Below are positions 1 to 46,126 of a stretch of DNA of 64,000 bases, one piece after another. Source of the DNA: Escherichia phage vB_EcoM-G3F7; sequence record MZ234035.1; one strand, given 5' to 3'. The notes beneath the pieces are model-generated. The model saw nothing but the letters and a program-made list of their open reading frames with translations, was not told the DNA's origin and did not search any database. The first letter of the stretch is position 1; each line of letters starts with the position of its first letter. The position numbers and the translations under genes were made by a program.

Positions 1-969
1 ATGAAAACTGTAACTATCAATAAGGGTATCTACTTCGGTAAAGAAATCTCTGGAACTTTTGAGCTCTTAGGTGAATGGTTCCCAGATAATGCTCCGGTAG
101 ATGCACAAGGAGATGGTAAAGTTTTTGTTGAAATTGACGGTAAGCGTCGCGGTGTTTGGGTTTACAAATCAGACATTTCATATGATGGTGTAAAAGTTGA
201 AGAAGTTAAAGAATCATATGAAGATATGAAAACCCGCATTAATAAAAGATTTAATGTTATGGGAATGATGACGAATGGTATTATTAACGGAAACATTCGT
301 TCATTAATTATCTCTGGTGCGGCGGGTATTGGTAAAACGTATTCTTTAGATAAAGCTTTGAATAAAGCAAATGATAATGGATACATTGAATATAAAAGCA
401 TTAACGGTAAAATCTCCGGTATCGGTCTTTATGAACAACTTTGGAATAATCGTGAAGAGAATTCTGTCCTTTTGATTGATGATGTGGATGTTTTCTCTGA
501 TATGGACATTCTTAATCTTCTGAAAGCTGCTCTGGACACTGGAGAGACCCGTAAAGTCTGCTGGAGCACCGCATCTTCTTACTTAGAAGAAAAAGGCATT
601 GAGCGTGAGTTTGAATTTAAAGGAACGATTGTTTTTATCACAAACGTTGACATTGACCGCGAATTAGACCGTGGTACTAAACTTGCTCCACATTTACAAG
701 CATTAGTGTCCCGCTCGGTTTATTTGGATTTGGGTGTTCACACTAATGAAGAAATTATGGTCAGGGTTGAAGATGTTATTCTTTCAACTGACATGATGCA
801 AAAGCGCGGTCTTTCTGATGAAGAAACTTATAAAGCATTATCATGGATGAAAGTTAATGTTAATCGTTTACGCAATGTTTCACTGCGTACTGCTCTTTAT
901 CTTGCTGACTTTATTATGACCGACAAAAACGGTTGGGAAGAAATTGCTGAGGTTACTCTTCTGAAATAA
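1..969 (+). CDS. P-loop NTPase (AAA-like), nrdC.11-like early protein
   Basis: 322-aa ORF; Walker A GAAGIGKT and Walker B LLIDDVD motifs. Confidence 0.7.
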   Translation: MKTVTINKGIYFGKEISGTFELLGEWFPDNAPVDAQGDGKVFVEIDGKRRGVWVYKSDISYDGVKVEEVKESYEDMKTRINKRFNVMGMMTNGIINGNIRSLIISGAAGIGKTYSLDKALNKANDNGYIEYKSINGKISGIGLYEQLWNNREENSVLLIDDVDVFSDMDILNLLKAALDTGETRKVCWSTASSYLEEKGIEREFEFKGTIVFITNVDIDRELDRGTKLAPHLQALVSRSVYLDLGVHTNEEIMVRVEDVILSTDMMQKRGLSDEETYKALSWMKVNVNRLRNVSLRTALYLADFIMTDKNGWEEIAEVTLLK

Positions 970-1058
970 TTCATAAGAGGACTTCTATGACAAAAAGGCA
1001 GTTCAGAAATAGATTATATGGACTGCCATTAAAAAGATGACTAGAATTAAACTGGTGA

Positions 1059-1373
1059 ATGGAGGTAATGATGTTATACTCAAAGGCTCGTGAAATTTAC
1101 GAAACTAAAATTAAAGAAGCAGTATTTAAGTTCGCAACGACAATGCGATGGACAAATGACTGGGAGTATTCAAAAAATCATAAGAAGCCCATGGTGACAA
1201 GAAAGGCTCATATGTTAGTGTTAATAGACCGTGAGCAGATTAAAGCCCGAGAAGCCCTCCAGAATCATAAAAAGGCTGCCTTTGAATGGTTTATGGATAA
1301 CACTGCTCCTGAGACTAAGAAAGCGGTAAGCGCATGGTTCAGTGGAAAAAATTGTGAAAGAAGTTTCTTTTAG
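1059..1373 (+). CDS. hypothetical protein
   Basis: 104-aa ORF; GGAGG RBS precedes internal ATG at 1071, so true start may be 1071. Confidence 0.45.
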   Translation: MEVMMLYSKAREIYETKIKEAVFKFATTMRWTNDWEYSKNHKKPMVTRKAHMLVLIDREQIKAREALQNHKKAAFEWFMDNTAPETKKAVSAWFSGKNCERSFF

Positions 1374-1375
1374 TG

Positions 1376-1405
1376 GTTTACAAGACTGTTCCTCTGTGGT
1401 ACTAT
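1376..1405 (+). promoter_or_regulatory. T4-type early promoter
   Basis: GTTTAC, 18-nt spacer with TGG, TACTAT. Confidence 0.6.
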
Positions 1406-1433
1406 ACAACTATCAACTACGGAGGAACACAAA

Positions 1434-1961
1434 ATGAACGCTAAAGATATTTTCAACCTGGTAAATTACAACGATGGTAAATTTAAATCTGAAGCACAAA
1501 GTAAGTTCTTTAATGACATCTCAATCGAAGGTGAAATCACGGTTGACGGAGGACAAATTTACAAATCTCGTTGGAATTGGATCGTTATTATCGATGAGAT
1601 TGGTATTGTAGAAATTTACAAGAATACGAATAAAAATCGTACATTACACTGGTCTCGTGATACTAACGAACAGTACAAAAAGGATAAAGCATCTAAATTA
1701 TCTCGTGTAACTCAAGAAGATATTGAGTTCATCAAGAAAGATATTTTGATGTATGATAACTTAATTGCTGAAGAGCAAGCTGTTATTGATAAATTTGATG
1801 AGATTAAAGCTTCTCGTGAAATTCCTGATTTTATGAAAGAATCAGTAAATGAACGATACACTCTCATTTCAGAGCGTATTGAAACTTACAAAAAGCAAAG
1901 AGCTGAACGCCAGAATACTCTTCGGAAGTTTGAAGAACGGTTAAAGACGGTACTCGCATAA
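1434..1961 (+). CDS. hypothetical early protein
   Basis: 175-aa ORF immediately downstream of early promoter 1376-1405 and GGAGG RBS. Confidence 0.55.
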   Translation: MNAKDIFNLVNYNDGKFKSEAQSKFFNDISIEGEITVDGGQIYKSRWNWIVIIDEIGIVEIYKNTNKNRTLHWSRDTNEQYKKDKASKLSRVTQEDIEFIKKDILMYDNLIAEEQAVIDKFDEIKASREIPDFMKESVNERYTLISERIETYKKQRAERQNTLRKFEERLKTVLA

Positions 1962-1962
1962 C

Positions 1963-1987
1963 CGCTTTATACCAAGGATGGTATAAT
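1963..1987 (+). promoter_or_regulatory. MotA-box-like middle promoter
   Basis: CGCTTTA box, 11-12-nt spacer, TATAAT. Confidence 0.4.
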
Positions 1988-2016
1988 GGTTCTAAGCCCT
2001 TTTAATTGAGATTATT

Positions 2017-2424
2017 ATGAAACAGTTGATAATTAAAAGATTGAATTTATTGATATGTTGTTTATGTATAGCAATTGCATATGGTTATTACGCAATTAAT
2101 GATTATATGCATTATAAAGATTATGATGTTACTGTAGTTAATACCATTACAGGAACACAAGGAAAAGGGTCTAGTTTATCGTTTATTGCCGTATATGAAC
2201 TCAAAGATGGTTATAGATTTAGTGAATATATTTCCCCAGAGATGTATTCATCAATAGAAAAAGGTGATAATATTACTGTAAGTTTACGTCCTTTCGACGT
2301 AAAACAGACATTGTTTGATAATATTGTTTGGTTCTTTGGAATGGTATTAGTTCAATCTGTGTGTGGTGCTTATATAGTCTGTTCCATCTTATTCTGTATA
2401 TTTAGTAAAATTGAAATTGAGTGA
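2017..2424 (+). CDS. hypothetical membrane protein
   Basis: 135-aa ORF with hydrophobic Cys-rich segments at both ends. Confidence 0.5.
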   Translation: MKQLIIKRLNLLICCLCIAIAYGYYAINDYMHYKDYDVTVVNTITGTQGKGSSLSFIAVYELKDGYRFSEYISPEMYSSIEKGDNITVSLRPFDVKQTLFDNIVWFFGMVLVQSVCGAYIVCSILFCIFSKIEIE

Positions 2425-2431
2425 GGAAAAT

Positions 2432-3319
2432 ATGTCAGTAGTAATTAATAATGTCAATGCAGTAATTAAATCTTTAGTTAATAAAAAATTAAATGAATGG
2501 ACTGTACTTCGTCGTGGAGAGCCAGATAAATTTTTTCATAGATTTAACCCAACTTTGGATTTGAATGTTATTGACAGAGATGTTCATGCTGAAATTTTAG
2601 ATAAATTTAAAGTTGATATTGGGTTTGGGTTAGATAAACATTTGCAACGAACAAACGGATCTGGAATGGGTTTATCTAATCGCATCATGAAAGCCCTTAA
2701 TAAAATTGGAGCGTTGTCTCGTATTAATGCGAGTGAAATCCTTCGCAATTATAATAAAGGATATGACCTTTATGGTCGACTAATGCCGAAATTATCATTT
2801 GACCAAATGATTGCGGATTTGTGGGAAAATCAACGACGATTATTAGCATTAGGCGCTCGATTAGCTAAAGGTCTAGATAAACAAATGATTTTTAAGACCA
2901 ATAATACAGAAGACCTTAAATGCTTTAAATTTAGTACTCGTGGAGATGATTATTACATCAGAGCTCGCTCTACAGATTATGTTAATATGGGGCATCATCT
3001 CTGTTTAGCTTTTGAAGTTTTAAAAGAAGCCGGAACATTAGAATATGTGTCTGGTGCTAAATGTCCGATTGGTTCAAATTGCATTTTAATTTATCGCCCA
3101 GATGAATCCAGTTCAACTAAATTACCTACAAAACCTGTACCAGTTCGCAGTAATGAAAAACATTCTGAACAAATTGCTTATTTTAATAAGCAGATTGAAG
3201 AGCTAAATATTTCTATTCAGCAATATGATGATGAAATTTTCAGACTATCTGGATTGAGTAGTAAAGCTAAATCTGAGCGTGAAAAATTAATTAAAATCGT
3301 TGATTTACTTAAATCTTAA
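2432..3319 (+). CDS. hypothetical protein with C-terminal coiled coil (paralog A)
   Basis: ATG at 2432 after GAGGA RBS; C-terminal heptad-rich tail. Confidence 0.55.
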   Translation: MSVVINNVNAVIKSLVNKKLNEWTVLRRGEPDKFFHRFNPTLDLNVIDRDVHAEILDKFKVDIGFGLDKHLQRTNGSGMGLSNRIMKALNKIGALSRINASEILRNYNKGYDLYGRLMPKLSFDQMIADLWENQRRLLALGARLAKGLDKQMIFKTNNTEDLKCFKFSTRGDDYYIRARSTDYVNMGHHLCLAFEVLKEAGTLEYVSGAKCPIGSNCILIYRPDESSSTKLPTKPVPVRSNEKHSEQIAYFNKQIEELNISIQQYDDEIFRLSGLSSKAKSEREKLIKIVDLLKS

Positions 3320-3327
3320 GGAACACC

Positions 3328-4356
3328 ATGAAAACTCGTTCTCAAATTGAAGATATGGTTCGTAATGCCAGCTATACTCGTGATGTTATGACATTTTTGT
3401 GTGAAAATAATTTAGACCCTGATAAAGTTAATCGTGTTATTCATCACTTTAAGTATACGAATAGCAGTGAATGGGTGCGTAATTTTAGTAAAGCAGGGTA
3501 TATTACACAAATGACTGCTCGTGAACAGCTCACCGATTTCTGTAAAACTATTGATTATAAAAATCCTTTGATTGTTCAAGGCGTTGGTCAAAGTAAGGTC
3601 GATTTATCATCTGGATTTTTCAATCCAAATCATTATCGTATTGAATGGAGATTTATTGCTCTATTCCGTAAACAATTAAAGCAAATTTTGTCTACTGCTA
3701 GTCGATTAAAAGGCTCTGATATTAACTTAAAGAACCTGAAATTTGATGGTTATACTCTTCAGATGGAAGTAAGACCGTTAAAAGAAAATAATAGAACTGC
3801 ACGAATTAGCTTTAAGCCTAATACTAAAAATTCTCTTTCAATTTGTGAATGTCTTAAATCACAGCTGACAGAAGCATTTAAGTATATGGATGTTGTTGCT
3901 GCTGTTCAATCTAAGATTTTACCTCGTTTTGAGCGAAATTGGGAACATACAACAACATATGAACTTGATATGATCGTTTCATTTAAATATGAATTTTTGA
4001 GAAAGGATGAAATTGTTCAAGAGAAAAAGCAGGAAGTGCAAGATACCTTAAATTTAAATTTATCCAATTACTTATCAAACGATCCTAAATTTTGGATGTA
4101 TAGCTCAAGCAATATAGATGCATGTAAACTTAATAAAGTGAGTTTTCTTCCTACTGAAAATTCAAATTTTAAACCTGTAGAAAAATGGCACGCTGACGCG
4201 ATTGAGAAGTCTCTTAAGGCAGTAGATGATGAACTCGTTAAAGCGACCAATGAAGTGCTAGAAGCTGAAAAGGCGTTAGAACAAGCTCAGTCAAGGGTTC
4301 AAAATCTGACAAAGCAACGTTCTAAACTGAACAATGCACTAAATGCACTGAACTAG
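3328..4356 (+). CDS. hypothetical protein with C-terminal coiled coil (paralog B)
   Basis: 342-aa ORF; tail ...LEAEKALEQAQSRVQNLTKQRSKLNNALNALN; core resembles next two ORFs. Confidence 0.6.
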   Translation: MKTRSQIEDMVRNASYTRDVMTFLCENNLDPDKVNRVIHHFKYTNSSEWVRNFSKAGYITQMTAREQLTDFCKTIDYKNPLIVQGVGQSKVDLSSGFFNPNHYRIEWRFIALFRKQLKQILSTASRLKGSDINLKNLKFDGYTLQMEVRPLKENNRTARISFKPNTKNSLSICECLKSQLTEAFKYMDVVAAVQSKILPRFERNWEHTTTYELDMIVSFKYEFLRKDEIVQEKKQEVQDTLNLNLSNYLSNDPKFWMYSSSNIDACKLNKVSFLPTENSNFKPVEKWHADAIEKSLKAVDDELVKATNEVLEAEKALEQAQSRVQNLTKQRSKLNNALNALN

Positions 4357-4385
4357 TTTACTTTGCCACAAGGATGTGGTATAAT
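4356..4385 (+). promoter_or_regulatory. T4-type early promoter
   Basis: GTTTAC, 18-nt spacer, TATAAT. Confidence 0.6.
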
Positions 4386-4413
4386 GTTTTTACTTTCTAC
4401 TGAGGAGATTATT

Positions 4414-5415
4414 ATGACTCGTAACGAATATATCAAATCATTCAATAGCGTTATTGATGATAAAGCTATACCGATGTTTGGCCAAAATAGCGTTCTTTCT
4501 ATTATCAATCAATGGCTCAATAGTGTTGATGCAAGTATTGTTTCTTCTACTAAATTTATTCATGAAATTCGTAAAATTTCTAGCCGTGTAGATAAAGATG
4601 TTATCAAGAAAACCTTTAAAGAGTCTCGTCTTCTTTCATATTTGGTTAATCGGGATATTCTTGGTAATTTTGGGAAAGAAATTAAACGAACTAAAGATGT
4701 AGTAGGATACAATTGGTTCGGTGATGTTAATTCTTATCATCTTAATATTAAAGAAGACCCTGAGAATATTTTTACTCGTCGTTGGATCAGTAATTTCAGA
4801 CTTTTTAAGAAACAAATTCTAAAATCAGCTTCTAAATTATGTTATGGCGATTATCGTCAAATTCATCCTTTGGCTTCTGATATGATTATCATAAAAGAAT
4901 ATGAACTTGATAAAAATAAAGTATCTATTTTTGTGAATTATGGATTTTTTACACCAGAAACTAACCAAAAGAATATTAATAAATTTTTCTCAATTGCTAG
5001 CACTATAACTCGTCAATTAGAGACCGCATTACTTTGTATGGAAACAGTAGAAAATATTCATACATATCCTTTTAAGAATATATGCGGTTGGGAAGGATAT
5101 AAACTCGTAATTAGCCTTCGTGAAGTGAAATGTGCTTATTCACCTACTGATAAAGAAATTTACCAACAAAAATGTGATGAAATTGTGAATACTCCTAAAG
5201 AAGAAACTACCCTTGAGGAACTAATGGAATGTCTTGATGATTCACCTGAACCGATAGAAATTCGTCCAGAAGTTATTGCACTAGAAAAAGCTTATAAAGA
5301 AGTTCTAGAAATTTCTAATAAAGCGCAGAAAGAATATGAGCAGGCTAAAAGGATTTGGGAAGAATCTGTTAATCGTCTTGATCGTCTGGAACAAGCTTTA
5401 CAGTTAATTAAGTAA
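4414..5415 (+). CDS. hypothetical protein with C-terminal coiled coil (paralog C)
   Basis: ATG at 4414 after GAGGAG RBS; shares FKKQILKSASKL core with paralog B; heptad tail. Confidence 0.6.
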   Translation: MTRNEYIKSFNSVIDDKAIPMFGQNSVLSIINQWLNSVDASIVSSTKFIHEIRKISSRVDKDVIKKTFKESRLLSYLVNRDILGNFGKEIKRTKDVVGYNWFGDVNSYHLNIKEDPENIFTRRWISNFRLFKKQILKSASKLCYGDYRQIHPLASDMIIIKEYELDKNKVSIFVNYGFFTPETNQKNINKFFSIASTITRQLETALLCMETVENIHTYPFKNICGWEGYKLVISLREVKCAYSPTDKEIYQQKCDEIVNTPKEETTLEELMECLDDSPEPIEIRPEVIALEKAYKEVLEISNKAQKEYEQAKRIWEESVNRLDRLEQALQLIK

Positions 5416-5467
5416 TTTAAAGCCAAGGATGGCTCGGAGTATAAATCATTAACCAAGTGAGAAGAAC

Positions 5468-6394
5468 ATGAAAACTCGTAAACATTATATTGATTATTTT
5501 GACAGTCTTATTACTAAACATCGTAATTATCAGATAGGACACAGAGCAGTAATCAATAATATTCTTCGTGATTTTTTAGACTATATTGGATGGGAAAACC
5601 ATATTTGTAAAGATACACAAAATGCGTATTCACATTCTCTTGGTTCTTTGCTCGAGTGGTTCAAACGTTCCCGATTACTATCTTCTGTGATAGCTGTTAA
5701 TAATGTTAAAAAATTTATGTATCCAAGCTACATTGAGACTAATGTATCAAATGCTAGTGTTGTTACATTTAATATTATTAACGACGTGAAAAGAACTTAT
5801 TTAGAAGAATGGTTTTCTAAAGATAGTAAAGAAAAATTTGCTAGTGAATTTTCACACGAATTCAATAATAACGTGAATATGCTTTTTAAGCATTCTCGTA
5901 GACTGTTTTGTCATGGTGATAACCGTACTATTAATGTGAATGTAAAAGACTGGGTTACGGCTAAATTCACTCCATCGTCCCAGAATGGGCAATTTGAATT
6001 GTCAATTATCATTTGTGCTCCGCACGAGATATATAAAAACCTTCCGTATATGAAACCACGCGAAGCTAATAAACACAATGAAACTATTAGTTCTTTGGCT
6101 TATAATTTACGCGTGTTATTATCTGATATGGATGTAGTCAAATCCTTTGATGATAATACGAATTATGGTCTTTCGCTGTTTGAAACTAAATTTGTTATTA
6201 AATTAAAGGACCCTAGTGAATTTAAACCTACACCAAAATCCAATCATGGAAATGATACTATGAAAGAAGAACGCGAATATCTCAGTGCCCGTTTGATTGA
6301 AGTTGAAAAACAGATTGAAGAGCATACTAAAGTTCTTAAGGCTTTAACCGCCAAAGCAAATGGTTTACGTAATGCTATTGAGGTATTGAAATGA
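5468..6394 (+). CDS. hypothetical protein with C-terminal coiled coil (paralog D)
   Basis: 308-aa ORF; heptad tail ...[31 protein letters not shown]. Confidence 0.6.
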   Translation: MKTRKHYIDYFDSLITKHRNYQIGHRAVINNILRDFLDYIGWENHICKDTQNAYSHSLGSLLEWFKRSRLLSSVIAVNNVKKFMYPSYIETNVSNASVVTFNIINDVKRTYLEEWFSKDSKEKFASEFSHEFNNNVNMLFKHSRRLFCHGDNRTINVNVKDWVTAKFTPSSQNGQFELSIIICAPHEIYKNLPYMKPREANKHNETISSLAYNLRVLLSDMDVVKSFDDNTNYGLSLFETKFVIKLKDPSEFKPTPKSNHGNDTMKEEREYLSARLIEVEKQIEEHTKVLKALTAKANGLRNAIEVLK

Positions 6395-6780
6395 AAAAGC
6401 GTTTATTAGAAGACATTGCAGCTTCAAGTAATTCCAGTTTAATTAAAATTATTATGGCTGGTGAGGAAGATGATATGGAAATGCGTGGAAAGATTCACGG
6501 CTGCGACGATTTAGATTTTAAACCTCCAGCATGGGATGCTATTATGGCTATGGTTGAACGACGTGAAAGAGCTTCTAAAAACGTTCCTAATTGCCCTGAA
6601 TGCGGTACTGAACAAGTTCAATTGATTAACTGGCGTAAACCAGAGCTTGAATATAAATGCCGTCAATGTAAACATAAATTCAGTAAGCATGCTCCGGAAA
6701 TGGTTAAATTGCCTGACTCTACTGAGTTCTTTAAAGAACTTGTGAGTGTTCAACCAATGCCTAATAATATTTTGGATTAA
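6391..6780 (+). CDS. hypothetical zinc-ribbon protein
   Basis: 129-aa ORF; CPECG...CRQC motif; ATGA start/stop overlap with upstream ORF. Confidence 0.55.
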
Positions 6781-6782
6781 AA

Positions 6783-7025
6783 ATGACCAAGCGTAAAGAA
6801 TATATGGAGGCTGCTGAAAAGGCAGTCCGTGAATTAGCAATAGCTTATTATAATGAACATGGTAAATTTCCTGATAGATACAGCGTGCTTAAATCTGCTT
6901 TAACTCGTTCATATAAAAATATGCTATCAGAAGTAAGTGATATTATATACAAACATAAAGAACAAACGGGCCAAAGTCTTGATTACGACGAGACTTTTAA
7001 ACAAGTACTAGGAATTAAGGAATAA
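6783..7025 (+). CDS. hypothetical protein
   Basis: 80-aa ORF tightly packed between neighbours. Confidence 0.5.
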
Positions 7026-12238: not shown

Positions 12239-12454
12239 ATGTATAAATTTCGTAAAGGTTTAGCTGATTTTCTTACAACTGTAACATTCTTTCTGTTTAT
12301 GGCAGTTGGAGCTATTTTCCTTATTCCTTTTATTGCTATATTTTTCGTGATTAGTTTAATTTCTCCAGAAAAGGGCTTATCTTCTAGTGAGTTTAATGAG
12401 CGTCTGGATAAAATTACTAACAAGCTGAATGCTGTTCTTGATAAAAAGGCTTAA
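12239..12454 (+). CDS. hypothetical membrane protein
   Basis: 71-aa ORF with one long hydrophobic helix. Confidence 0.45.
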   Translation: MYKFRKGLADFLTTVTFFLFMAVGAIFLIPFIAIFFVISLISPEKGLSSSEFNERLDKITNKLNAVLDKKA

Positions 12455-12456
12455 TT

Positions 12457-12768
12457 ATGATTAGTTTTGAGCGGTATGTAGTAGAGAGTTGGAATGGTTT
12501 TGATATGTTCGGTAATGACTATTATTTCTATGAATGTAGTCTGAACCCAAGCTTCTGGGCTGGACGTGAACAAGACCTCGAAGAAATCAACGCTCGTGCC
12601 GATTTGTTAGGTGAACTGCCTACTACTTATTTCACCTTTGATGAATCCGGCTTCGTTATCCAGGTTTATTTTCCTGAAGAAAACTCTGGTGAGGATTCTG
12701 TTAATCCTCCTTATTGGGCTTACCAAGGAATTATTTCTCGTGGAACAAAACTCGAACTTAAAGAATAA
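12457..12768 (+). CDS. hypothetical protein
   Basis: 103-aa ORF, acidic. Confidence 0.5.
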   Translation: MISFERYVVESWNGFDMFGNDYYFYECSLNPSFWAGREQDLEEINARADLLGELPTTYFTFDESGFVIQVYFPEENSGEDSVNPPYWAYQGIISRGTKLELKE

Positions 12769-33710: not shown

Positions 33711-34004
33711 ATGAAAAAATTTATCTTTGCTACAATTTTTGCTTTAGCTTCTTGTGCTGCTCAGCCTGCTATGGCAGGTTATGATAAAGATTTGTGCGAA
33801 TGGTCTATGACTGCGGATCAGACTGAGGTTGAAACTCAAATTGAAGCAGATATTATGAATATCGTTGAGCGTGATCGTCCTGAAATGAAAGCTGAAGTGC
33901 AAAAACAGCTTAAGTCTGGTGGTGTAATGCAGTATAATTACGTTCTGTATTGTGATAAAAACTTTAATAATAAAAATATCATCGCTGAAGTGGTAGGTGA
34001 ATAA
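33711..34004 (+). CDS. sp: Spackle-like periplasmic protein
   Basis: 97 aa with N-terminal signal peptide; size and position match T4 sp. Confidence 0.6.
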   Translation: MKKFIFATIFALASCAAQPAMAGYDKDLCEWSMTADQTEVETQIEADIMNIVERDRPEMKAEVQKQLKSGGVMQYNYVLYCDKNFNNKNIIAEVVGE

Positions 34005-34017
34005 TTAGAGGCTAATA

Positions 34018-34182
34018 TGAAAACGTTTAAAGAATTTATCAAAGAAGATATGGTCGCTGGAGATTCAGGTGGTAGTCCTGAAAATATCTCTACTGGAACA
34101 ACGTCAGGCGCTGTAGTAAATAAAGGTCCTGAACAGATTCCTAAAAAGAAAAAAGAGGAATCTAAAGAAAAAGAAGAGTAAA
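34018..34182 (+). CDS. small hypothetical protein
   Basis: 54-aa Lys/Glu-rich ORF between sp and 61. Confidence 0.35.
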
Positions 34183-34183
34183 A

Positions 34184-35212
34184 ATGTCATCAATACCTTG
34201 GATTGATAATGAGTTTGCATACCGTGCATTAGCTCATTTACCTAAATTCACACAAGTAAATAATAGTTCAACTTTTAAATTACGGTTTAGATGCCCAGTT
34301 TGTGGAGATTCAAAAACCGACCAGAATAAAGCCCGTGGATGGTATTATGGTGATAATAATGAAGGAAATATTCATTGTTATAACTGTAACTATCATGCAC
34401 CAATCGGAATATATTTAAAGGAGTTTGAACCTGATTTATATCGTGAGTATATCTTTGAAATAAGAAAAGAAAAAGGTAAAAGTCGTCCAGTAGAAAAACC
34501 TAAAGAACTTCCTAAACAACCTGAGAAGAAAATAATTAAATCTCTTCCGTCATGTGTTAGATTAGATAAACTGGCGGAAGACCATCCAATTATAAAATAT
34601 GTAAAAGCTCGTTGTATTCCAAAGGATAAATGGAAATATCTTTGGTTTACAACCGAATGGCCTAAATTAGTTAATAGCATAGCACCGGGAACATATAAAA
34701 AGGAAATTTCTGAGCCTCGTCTTGTTATTCCAATTTATAATGCTAATGGAAAAGCTGAGTCTTTTCAAGGACGCGCATTAAAGAAAGATGCTCCTCAAAA
34801 ATATATCACCATCAAAGCTTATCCTGAAGCAACAAAAATTTATGGAGTCGAACGAGTTAAAGATGGTGATGTATATGTTCTAGAAGGACCTATAGATTCA
34901 CTTTTTATTGAAAATGGTATAGCTATTACGGGTGGTCAATTAGACCTAGAAGTTGTTCCATTTAAAGATAGACGAGTGTGGGTTTTAGATAATGAACCTC
35001 GTCACCCTGACACTATTAAACGAATGACTAAATTAGTTGATGCAGGAGAAAGGGTTATGTTTTGGGATAAATCTCCCTGGAAATCAAAAGATGTTAATGA
35101 TATGATTAGAAAGGAAGGTGCAACCACTGAACAAATTATGGAATATATGAAAAATAATATTGCCCAGGGGTTAATGGCTAAAATGCGGCTATCTAAATAT
35201 GCTAAGATTTAA
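34184..35212 (+). CDS. 61: DNA primase gp61
   Basis: 342 aa; N-terminal zinc ribbon CPVCGD...CYNC; Toprim-like region. Confidence 0.9.
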   Translation: MSSIPWIDNEFAYRALAHLPKFTQVNNSSTFKLRFRCPVCGDSKTDQNKARGWYYGDNNEGNIHCYNCNYHAPIGIYLKEFEPDLYREYIFEIRKEKGKSRPVEKPKELPKQPEKKIIKSLPSCVRLDKLAEDHPIIKYVKARCIPKDKWKYLWFTTEWPKLVNSIAPGTYKKEISEPRLVIPIYNANGKAESFQGRALKKDAPQKYITIKAYPEATKIYGVERVKDGDVYVLEGPIDSLFIENGIAITGGQLDLEVVPFKDRRVWVLDNEPRHPDTIKRMTKLVDAGERVMFWDKSPWKSKDVNDMIRKEGATTEQIMEYMKNNIAQGLMAKMRLSKYAKI

Positions 35213-35409
35213 ATTAACCCAACTAAAGCAAATGCTAAATCTACGAATGTATCAAGAGTAACTACTGGAATACTAACGCCATGAGCAATAGCAACTGGCG
35301 ATAAAACAAAATTCCAAAGTAAAATTCCTATCATAGCAGTAATAGTAAAAGCTATACGTTTCTTATTACCTTTTATGGCATTAACAAGTGCCATTAATTT
35401 TTGTACCAT
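35209..35409 (-). CDS. small hydrophobic membrane protein, antisense to flanking genes
   Basis: 66-aa ORF; AAGGAGGA RBS 3 nt before ATG; two hydrophobic helices. Confidence 0.45.
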   Translation of the reverse strand: MVQKLMALVNAIKGNKKRIAFTITAMIGILLWNFVLSPVAIAHGVSIPVVTLDTFVDLAFALVGLI

Positions 35410-35422
35410 ATGTCCTCCTTAT

Positions 35423-35446
35423 TGCTTTATATATTTATTGTATAAT
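35423..35446 (+). promoter_or_regulatory. MotA-box middle promoter upstream of gene 56
   Basis: TTGCTTTA box, 11-nt spacer, TATAAT. Confidence 0.55.
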
Positions 35447-35482
35447 TAATCTACTAACCCATGAATTGAAAGGAAAAATAAC

Positions 35483-35998
35483 ATGCCACATTTCAACGAA
35501 TGTAGTCAACTGATCGAAGGCGCTGATAAAGCTCAAAATGAATATTGGGATATTCTCGGTGATGAAAAAGACCCGCTGCAGGTAATGCTTGATATGCAGA
35601 AATCTTTACAGATTCGTTTAGCAAATGACCGCGAATACTGTTATCATCCAGATAAATTAGAAACTGCCGGTGATGTTGTTTCTTGGATGCGTGAACAAAA
35701 AGACTGTATTGATGATGAATTCCGCGAACTTCTGACTTCTCTTGGTGAAATGTCACGTGGTGAAAAAGATGCATCGGCAGTTTGGAAAAAATGGAAAGCA
35801 CGTTATATTGAAGCGCAAGAAAAACGCATTGATGAAATGTCCCCAGAAGATCAGCTCGAAATTAAATTTGAGCTTGTGGATATATTTCATTTCGTATTAA
35901 ATATGTTTGCTGGCCTTGGAATGAATGCGGAAGAAATCTTTAAACTTTATTATTTGAAAAATAAACATAATTTTGAACGTCAAGATAATGGGTATTAA
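35483..35998 (+). CDS. 56: dCTP pyrophosphatase gp56 (MazG-like)
   Basis: 171 aa; matches T4 gp56 length; MotA-box promoter upstream. Confidence 0.85.
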   Translation: MPHFNECSQLIEGADKAQNEYWDILGDEKDPLQVMLDMQKSLQIRLANDREYCYHPDKLETAGDVVSWMREQKDCIDDEFRELLTSLGEMSRGEKDASAVWKKWKARYIEAQEKRIDEMSPEDQLEIKFELVDIFHFVLNMFAGLGMNAEEIFKLYYLKNKHNFERQDNGY

Positions 35999-36662
35999 AC
36001 AAAAATTTTATAGAACATATATCGTAAAAGTTAGGACGCCGAAAGGCGTCTTTTGGTACGCTGGGAAACATGAATCATTTATTGTAAATCCATATGATGA
36101 TAAATATCCGGGGTCAGGCAAAATACTATGGAACATATATCGTAAGTATGGTTTTAATTATAAAATACGTTGGTCAAAATGCCATGGTTCTAGAGAAAAA
36201 TCATATGAAGTTGAACGCGAGCTAATATCTGCATTAAAACGTAAACACCCAGATACTTGCATTAATATTTCTCCTGGTGGTCAGGGTGGAGAAGGAAGAA
36301 AATGGACTGAGCAACAACGATTAGAACATAAACTTAGATTAAACAATCCTGAAACAAAAACTCGGATGAAGAATTCACAACGTATAGCCCAAAATAGAGC
36401 AGAACGAAAAGCTCGGCAATCTGAAGTAATGAAAAAGTTTTATTCGAATGGCGGAAATAAAAAGATTTCAGAAGGAACTTCAAGGGCGCAAAGAAAAGCG
36501 CCGCATTGGCATGAACCGCTTAAAAGCGAAATACATGAGTTATGGGTTTCTTTAGGTAAACCAGCAACAGGCCCGGTTGTAAAGGCGCTTAAAGGAAAAT
36601 ATGATGTAACAAGTTCAGCTCTTAAGAATTTAATTTACTTATTCAGAAAAGAAGATGTATAA
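35988..36662 (+). CDS. segF: GIY-YIG homing endonuclease SegF
   Basis: 224 aa from ATG 35988; GIY-YIG-like N-terminus; between 56 and soc as in T4. Confidence 0.8.
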   Translation: MGIKQKFYRTYIVKVRTPKGVFWYAGKHESFIVNPYDDKYPGSGKILWNIYRKYGFNYKIRWSKCHGSREKSYEVERELISALKRKHPDTCINISPGGQGGEGRKWTEQQRLEHKLRLNNPETKTRMKNSQRIAQNRAERKARQSEVMKKFYSNGGNKKISEGTSRAQRKAPHWHEPLKSEIHELWVSLGKPATGPVVKALKGKYDVTSSALKNLIYLFRKEDV

Positions 36663-36665
36663 ATA
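36658..36665 (+). promoter_or_regulatory. late promoter motif for soc
   Basis: Exact TATAAATA about 30 nt upstream of soc ATG, overlapping segF stop. Confidence 0.55.
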
Positions 36666-38259: not shown

Positions 38260-38412
38260 ACAAAGATATGACGTTAGAAGAGGCTAAAGCAAAAGCAAAT
38301 GAAGCATTGGATTTGCTTCTTAAAATTGGCAGTAAAATGATGGAAGAAAATGAGAAATATATCCAGGAAAACAAAATTCCTGACGGCCCATTAGTAGGCA
38401 AGAGGAAATCAC

Positions 38413-38883
38413 ATGATTGAAGTAGCAAAACATTATTCAATAGAATTTATGTCTAAAGAAGGTAAATCAGTAAATACACTTGACAAAAAGTGCTCGTTAA
38501 TTATTCCTTTAGCAGAAAATCCGGATATTTTAATTAAAGATATAAAAGAAAGAAAATACCCAGAAAATGTTATTCTAATTATAAAGCATACTGAAGATAT
38601 TTTGCAGAATACTGATTCACCGTTTTCTTCTTCTGAAGCTTTAACTATTAAAGGCTATAAAAGAGCTCATGAATATGGTCTTTTTGACCTGTTTGAAGAC
38701 GATAAAGTTAAATTAGCGAGTCAACCTTCTAAAAGTAAAACATTCATTATTGAAGATATTAAAGATATAAATGCATTCGTTAAGATGGTCTGGGCTCATT
38801 TTGATGTTGGACTACGCTGGAGAATGTCCGAAGAAGAAAGAAAGATTATTGAAGCTAATCGTCAATTTGGTTTTTATCGCTAG
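38413..38883 (+). CDS. hypothetical protein
   Basis: 156-aa ORF. Confidence 0.5.
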
Positions 38884-38891
38884 GAATTAAT

Positions 38892-39074
38892 ATGGATTTA
38901 TTTGAGATGTTAGAAGATAATCATTCTACGAATATCCAGAATGATTCTAGTGATTATAAGAAAGAGTACCGTATAGTATTACAGAATTATGGAATTGAAG
39001 CCCCAGATGCTCTTCTAGAAGAACTAGCTTCATACCATCTTGACCCTCCGCCTTGGGCTCCTTGGGCAAAATAA
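38892..39074 (+). CDS. hypothetical acidic protein
   Basis: 60-aa ORF. Confidence 0.4.
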   Translation: MDLFEMLEDNHSTNIQNDSSDYKKEYRIVLQNYGIEAPDALLEELASYHLDPPPWAPWAK

Positions 39075-45955: not shown

Positions 45956-46126
45956 AGTTTAAAATTTTTTCATAAAACTATATACATCAGTAGTTGATTA
46001 TGGTACTATATCAATATCAACTACTGATACAGAAAACAACTTGGAGAATAAAATGGATAATTCGTTAAAGGTGCGCTGATACTCTTCTGAAACGCATCGC
46101 TCCAATGTTCAATTAATGAGGAAATT

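Follow-up and report, generated by a model that had tools for sequence, protein, structure and literature searches.

The gene 61–56 interval of a dam-less Tequatrovirus genome: an uncharacterised orthologue of T4 dam.1 at a variable insertion site

The dam locus of T-even phages

The T4 records place the gene for the Dam adenine methyltransferase between genes 61 and 56 (gene order 61, dam, 56); dam is known to be accessory and dispensable. Gene 61 and dam are separated in the T4T record (HM137666) by a small opposite-strand gene, annotated as dam.1 (locus T4Tp032), which overlaps the gene 61 stop codon. The corresponding interval is described here in Escherichia phage vB_EcoM-G3F7 (MZ234035.1), of which a stretch of 64,000 nucleotides, referred to below as the window, was analysed. 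The window is identical, base for base, to the first 64 kb of Escherichia phage vB_EcoM-G3F10 (MZ234038.1, Tequatrovirus gee4498), and statements about the whole genome rest on the complete 167,867-bp sequence of MZ234038.1, which matches the window over its 64 kb. The dam locus of T4 and T2 has the same flanking genes as the window (61, dam.1, 56, segF and soc), but it carries a cassette that is absent from the window, of about 880 bp in T4 and about 1.4 kb in T2-type phages, in which dam is accompanied by an open reading frame (ORF) of 186 codons (ORF186). An initial annotation of the window had given the T4 gene order correctly, and had pointed out the lack of dam and, as unusual, the small antisense ORF in the gap.

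The results presented below suggest, with a probability of about 0.8, that the 61–56 interval of the window is a cassette-free, probably ancestral state of a variable T-even locus, with two interleaved expression units. On the minus strand, dam.1 would be transcribed late, from a AATAAATA box, and translated from a strong Shine-Dalgarno (SD) sequence. Its product would be a small helical hairpin of the inner membrane: a cytoplasmic, cationic and amphipathic N-terminal helix, followed by a first transmembrane helix (TM1) with an invariant W-N-F...P, a very short periplasmic turn, and a second transmembrane helix (TM2) that holds two acidic residues and has no C-terminal tail after it, the late timing, membrane insertion and topology being those that we infer. 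On the plus strand, a MotA-dependent middle promoter would serve gene 56, with a spacer holding the dam.1 late box, so that one stretch of 27 bp would be used twice, first by the middle programme and later, on the opposite strand, by the late programme. The dam gene, together with ORF186 in T2-type phages, would have been inserted as an accessory element between dam.1 and the promoter of gene 56, an insertion that this lineage lacks. The finding itself is ordinary and already catalogued: dam.1 is known but uncharacterised, and the dam-less junction with its small ORF has already been deposited in hundreds of Tequatrovirus genomes, the ORF being labelled 'hypothetical protein'.

Identity and distribution of dam.1

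The genes of the interval are:

34184..35212, plus strand: gene 61, DNA primase, 342 aa (ORF list; annotated as G3F10_067)
35209..35409, minus strand: dam.1 orthologue, 66 aa (ORF list; G3F10_068, named hypothetical protein in MZ234038.1)
35483..35998, plus strand: gene 56, dCTPase, 171 aa (ORF list)

Genes 61 and dam.1 are convergent and their stop codons overlap, with 4 nt shared, and a 73-bp promoter region separates the dam.1 ATG from gene 56. The gene 61 product is 99.4% identical at the protein level to T4 gp61. The small ORF is 94% identical to Dam.1 of T4T (ADJ39749.1), both proteins having 66 residues, and belongs to the same 90%-identity cluster as the T4 protein, for which the UniRef name is 'Uncharacterized protein dam.1'. 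It also matches phrog_2024, a family of unknown function, over almost its entire length (E 2.4e-30, residues 2–66 against profile positions 1–65 of 65). To judge from these matches, the small ORF is the orthologue of T4 dam.1, RB69ORF029w and PHROG 2024, an uncharacterised family. It shares position, orientation, SD sequence and late-box distance with T4 dam.1; however, T4 dam.1 faces the dam cassette, with its late box (GATAAATA) in a different flank, whereas dam.1 of the window faces the gene 56 promoter directly.

The initial annotation placed the small ORF in a gap where dam would be expected. The same ORF accompanies dam in T4, T2 and T6 (it is unannotated in T2), and, as dam.1 is present in T4 beside dam, it cannot be considered a filler of a gap left by dam. 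It is also unannotated in the compiled T4 reference records (NC_000866, AF158101); these records therefore omit a conserved gene under purifying selection, and omics analyses based on them miss dam.1.

A tblastn search detected dam.1 in 697 phage records, about 500 of them at 80% identity or more and 195 at less than 60%. Distant copies are found at the same site in Mosigvirus JS09 (noted as RB69ORF029w), Gaprivervirus EAWsc9 and Kanagawavirus Q7622, in all of which the small ORF converges on the primase gene and points away from gene 56, with no dam there. These RB69ORF029w-type orthologues from Mosigvirus, Gaprivervirus and Kanagawavirus have 65–69 residues, are only 31–55% identical to dam.1 of the window and, unlike the latter, have no terminator-like hairpin in their 5' codons. 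A word-indexed search returned 33 close relatives, and five loci were found in IMG/VR. When 1.84 billion representative proteins were searched exhaustively with a profile for more distant homologues, only six clusters emerged, all from the same narrow family, indicating that the dam.1 family is confined to enterobacterial T-even-like phages. Homology thus gives no clue to its function. No Pfam or NCBIfam family matches dam.1, even at E ≤ 10, and the only significant match of its AlphaFold2 model in a structure search against viral models is its own orthologue.

Coding status and predicted protein

Antisense ORFs longer than dam.1 arise by chance inside genes 61 and 56, and the length of dam.1 is, therefore, not significant in itself. 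Its conservation, the ratio of nonsynonymous to synonymous substitution rates (dN/dS) and its expression signals make the case instead, and by these sequence measures dam.1 has the marks of a real gene. Pairwise dN/dS among eight Tequatrovirus copies lies between 0.07 and 0.30 (about 0.13), and the 19 variable sites are distributed over codon positions 1, 2 and 3 as 6, 2 and 11 (P=0.024). The replacements are conservative (T/S, I/V, S/N). Across genera, G14, W32-N33-F34, P38, G44 and P48 are invariant, and the length, the SD sequence and the hydrophobic pattern are retained.

The 66-codon frame, its strong ribosome-binding site and the two hydrophobic helices reported in the initial annotation are borne out by the sequence, by Kyte-Doolittle analysis and by AlphaFold2. 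The 19-residue Kyte-Doolittle average exceeds 1.6 at centres 27–36 and 53–57, giving two hydrophobic segments, and the AlphaFold2 model has helices at residues 2–13 (amphipathic), 16–42 and 52–63, with a short loop before the last. All five K/R residues precede TM1, and, given the positive-inside rule, the likeliest topology would be a hairpin with both termini in the cytoplasm (N-in, C-in). The protein ends, in ...FALVGLI, inside the second hydrophobic helix, with no polar tail. Three intramembrane polar residues are conserved (Asn33, Asp53 and Asp57), which, in the model, suggests oligomerisation or the binding of a membrane partner.

Expression signals on the two strands

Four signals were identified in and around the first codons of dam.1:

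35413..35420, minus strand: Shine-Dalgarno sequence AAGGAGGA of dam.1, read from the sequence, 4 nt before the ATG
35432..35439, minus strand: gp55-type late box AATAAATA, A(-13) variant, ending 22 nt upstream of the dam.1 ATG
35420..35446, plus strand: MotA-dependent middle promoter of gene 56, homologue of T4 P56/69 (consensus and alignment)
35375..35404, plus strand: terminator-like hairpin ATGGCATTAACAAGTGCCAT followed by TAATTTTTGT, downstream of gene 61 and in the first dam.1 codons (pattern scan)

A GGAG-type SD sequence is kept in all dam.1 orthologues, and an xATAAATA motif is present 16–22 nt upstream of the ATG in every one of them, in Tequatro-, Mosig-, Gapriver- and Kanagawavirus, in flanks that are otherwise unrelated. 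The Kanagawavirus orthologue has a perfect TATAAATA late box, and the box is also kept in dam-carrying phages, in which the upstream sequence is cassette DNA. Of the 50 sites listed in a review on late transcription in T4, 32 match the TATAAATA consensus perfectly, and A at position -13 is the commonest variant (9 of 50 listed promoters); late transcripts of either polarity are described, several sites being transcribed on both strands at different times (PMC2988020). Within the window, ATAAATA occurs 10 times, versus 39.7 +/- 5.2 expected (about four-fold depletion), and TATAAATA three times, versus 10.1 expected, with one copy (36658–36665) just upstream of the late gene soc. The late motif thus seems to be avoided, making its chance placement before dam.1 unlikely and the few copies present likely to be functional. 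A pattern scan for sigma-70-like promoters on the minus strand near dam.1 found none. These sequence features indicate that dam.1 is most probably a late gene, expressed from a gp55-type promoter.

Late expression would explain the opposite orientation of dam.1 within an early/middle region. Minus-strand genes are indeed rare here, as had been noted: they account for three of the 99 annotated features in the first 50 kb, dam.1 included (the other two are ORFs of 40 aa at 12451–12573 and 35 aa at 45998–46105, both on the minus strand). If dam.1 is late, as its late-promoter box suggests, an antisense gene at this place is nevertheless expected T4 biology, late transcription proceeding with either polarity (PMC2988020). 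No minus-strand terminator was found after dam.1 within the scanned region (34800–35800), and a late transcript would, therefore, run antisense into gene 61. On the other side, upstream of the dam.1 promoter, there is a weak terminator-like hairpin inside gene 56 (35571–35583, minus strand, 5-bp stem), which, from its sequence, could keep late antisense read-through from reaching dam.1.

On the plus strand, the promoter of gene 56 consists of a MotA box (TATTGCTTTA, 35420–35429), an 11-bp spacer and a -10 element (TATAAT, 35441–35446). The published MotA consensus is wwwTGCTTtA, at 12+/-1 bp from TAtaaT, and P56/69 is among the mapped T4 promoters (PMC2988021). The promoter proposed in the initial annotation fits this consensus and spacing, and the promoter region of the window aligns with the T4 region upstream of gene 56, which contains P56/69. 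P56/69 also primes oriA, which is annotated in T4. The dam.1 late box lies within the 11-bp spacer of this promoter; in JS09, by contrast, the late box can be read beside a MotA-like box rather than in a promoter spacer. The terminator-like hairpin has its stem-loop at 35375–35394, with a T-run after it, and an 81-nt fold containing it (35340–35420, plus strand) has a predicted energy of -12.7 kcal/mol (z -2.3). It is kept in all Tequatrovirus copies, but not in the other genera, and is annotated as a terminator in Yersinia phage fPS-2.

A variable insertion site between dam.1 and gene 56

Of 512 records matched by a 161-nt probe that covers the 5' end of dam.1 and runs into the start of gene 56, 322 (about 63%) contain it as one uninterrupted stretch, and the junction also lacks dam in the three other genera mentioned above. 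T4-type Dam at 90% identity or more is found in about 182 records, versus about 500 with dam.1 at 80% or more. The dam-less condition is, thus, that of the majority, and not a peculiarity of this phage; the reference comparison shows dam to be absent from this lineage.

Four states of the site have been found. In the window, there is nothing between dam.1 and the gene 56 promoter. In T4, dam is present after a 21-codon remnant. In T2-type phages (155 full-length records), the site is occupied by ORF186, which encodes a 186-aa protein with a restriction-endonuclease fold, and by dam, the stop codon of ORF186 overlapping the dam start. In Yersinia phage fPS-2, a 216-aa homing endonuclease (L004:2281-2931) is encoded downstream of a promoter region identical to that of the window. 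The dam.1–gene 56 interval is, therefore, an insertion hotspot. The T4 remnant comprises only codons 159–179 of ORF186, directly upstream of dam (T4T, L001:2238-2300, plus strand), and the T4 arrangement consequently resembles a T2-type cassette from which a segment has been deleted. Some Mosigvirus-like and Klebsiella phages have a dam gene elsewhere in the genome, with 46–57% identity. Given that this interval differs between otherwise near-identical phages, it should be a useful marker of mosaicism, and possibly of competition between phages.

The sequence of gene 56 is itself a mosaic. Sliding identity assigns gene 56 up to about position 35600 to the allele of fPS-2 and the dam-less phages (95–100%), and from about 35640 it is 100% T4-type, the tract starting at about 35605–35640. 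The segF homing-endonuclease gene follows gene 56, within a mosaic region spanning 35483–36662, and SegF is 98.7% identical to that of T4. The gene 56 product is 95% identical to T4 gp56 and 66–80% identical to the products of other Tequatrovirus alleles; for gp61, identity is 98–99%. In sequence, this mosaic fits a SegF-driven co-conversion, by which a T4-type 56-segF segment would have entered a dam-less backbone, in a way similar to the SegF-mediated homing that Belle et al. reportedly described in 2002.

The T4-like tract can also be read in another way, with the lineage stemming from a T4-like, dam-carrying ancestor that has recently lost dam by deletion or replacement, the short gap being the scar. 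The 3' two thirds of gene 56 (95–100% bins) and segF are T4-type, and in T4 they are linked to dam; T4 itself shows a deletion at this site, with only codons 159–179 of ORF186 left. However, the window contains no remnant of dam or ORF186, and its junction is not a T4-type flank, being identical to that of hundreds of dam-less phages: the late-box context is AATAAATATATAAAGCAATAAGGAGG in the window versus GATAAATATTAATTTAAAGGAGG in all dam-carrying copies. Moreover, the T4-like tract begins only inside gene 56, well into the coding sequence as mapped above, and the other genera examined have no dam at the site. A specific version of this scenario, excision of the T4 cassette through short direct repeats at its two ends, was rejected because the predicted product matches neither the spacer nor the late-box context of the window. 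Recent loss of dam is thus unlikely, and the dam-less junction, being free of any trace of the cassette, is read as an uninserted state rather than a recent deletion; on this sequence comparison, the cassette-free junction is probably the ancestral state.

Absence of Dam and GATC methylation

The initial annotation had reported no ORF with a DPPY-type methylase motif in the window, and this observation holds for the whole genome. With T4 Dam as the query, tblastn detected no homologue in the window (best E 5.5) or in the complete MZ234038.1 sequence (best E 0.96). A search for [DNS]PP[YFW] in the window and the genome gave matches confined to out-of-frame or unrelated ORFs, with no DPPY-type methylase, and no methyltransferase is named among the annotations of MZ234038.1. 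As Dam is absent from the genome, no phage enzyme is predicted to methylate GATC sites in the virion. The DNA packaged by such phages should, therefore, be free of phage-directed GATC methylation, which bears on their restriction sensitivity and on methylation-based analyses. GATC is under-represented in MZ234038.1 (218 sites versus about 547 expected from base composition); GATC avoidance is a known phenomenon in enterobacterial phages.

Possible functions of dam.1

The best guess that can be made, with low confidence, is that Dam.1 acts in the inner membrane late in infection, by oligomerising there or binding a partner, and in this way modulates envelope or lysis physiology. A more specific proposal is that it is a holin or a pinholin-like lysis protein. 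Class II holins and pinholins (S21) are like Dam.1 in size, and may be like it in their two helices, predicted for Dam.1 with two Asp residues in the second, and in their late expression, predicted for dam.1 from a sequence motif; two database records label orthologues in this way ('Holin' in vB_EcoM_OE5505 and 'holin family protein' in EAWsc9). By contrast with S21-type holins, Dam.1 has no holin family match (Pfam and NCBIfam, E ≤ 10), no charged tail and no lysis-cassette context. Holins typically carry a charged hydrophilic C-terminal tail, whereas Dam.1 ends within its second hydrophobic helix, and no endolysin or spanin gene adjoins dam.1. T-even phages use holin T, which is unrelated to dam.1, and the sole structural match of Dam.1 is its own orthologue. 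Membership of the holins is, therefore, not supported and seems improbable, although by analogy Dam.1 may resemble S21-type holins in working as a small oligomerising membrane protein. Even less credit can be given to the idea that dam.1 is untranslated, its conservation reflecting the gene 61 terminator or a late antisense RNA to the 3' end of gene 61. The hairpin does lie within the first dam.1 codons, and the minus strand has no terminator after dam.1 in the region scanned (34800–35800), but third-position substitutions dominate, the replacements are conservative and dN/dS is about 0.13. Furthermore, orthologues with 31–55% identity keep the frame, the length, the SD sequence and the hydrophobic pattern, whereas the DNA, including the hairpin, is unconserved outside Tequatrovirus. 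A purely non-coding role is, thus, very improbable.

Several observations nevertheless weigh against the proposal of an ancestral, cassette-free locus with a late membrane-protein gene. That the empty site is ancestral is argued by parsimony from three other genera rather than from a dated phylogeny, and the T4-like 3' part of gene 56 and segF point to recombination with a T4-like donor. Position -13 of the late box is off consensus (A in the window, G in T4 and C in Gaprivervirus). The literature on dam.1 and RB69ORF029w returned no transcript, protein or phenotype data, and a search for T4 small-ORF or ribosome-profiling studies found nothing relevant to dam.1. The predicted TM2 carries two Asp residues and may, therefore, be interfacial rather than membrane-spanning, and the confidence of the AlphaFold2 model is moderate (pLDDT 74, from a 5-sequence alignment).

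A broader, tentative proposal, more probably wrong than right as a whole, combines two ideas: that dam.1 is an overlooked late inner-membrane protein and new regulator, and that the T-even Dam is what is left of a GATC restriction-modification system. Conserved in at least four genera of enterobacterial T-even-like phages, and overlooked for want of an annotation in the T4 reference genome, dam.1 could encode a small protein of a new kind that regulates envelope or lysis physiology, and its promoter, nested in the oriA-priming promoter of gene 56, could link late transcription to the silencing of that promoter or origin. The 'orphan' T-even Dam may, for its part, be a relic of a GATC restriction-modification pair that phages carried, with ORF186, intact in T2-type phages, as its partner, in which case dam-less phages could be natural targets in mixed infection. 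A literature search for T2 dam with a restriction partner found nothing relevant.

Annotation of the record and a further variable slot

The product names in MZ234038.1 are partly unreliable, for example at 1–7025 and 38268–39074: ten consecutive genes are named 'thioredoxin' and ORFs of the modA region 'molybdenum ABC transporter', and such names are unfit as evidence. Another variable slot lies in the same gene block, just upstream of gene 61. Gene 61.2 is missing from the window, in which spackle (33711–34004) is followed by 12 nt (34005–34016) and then by 61.1 (34017–34181); the gene 61.2 product has 208 aa in T4 and 108 aa in T2.

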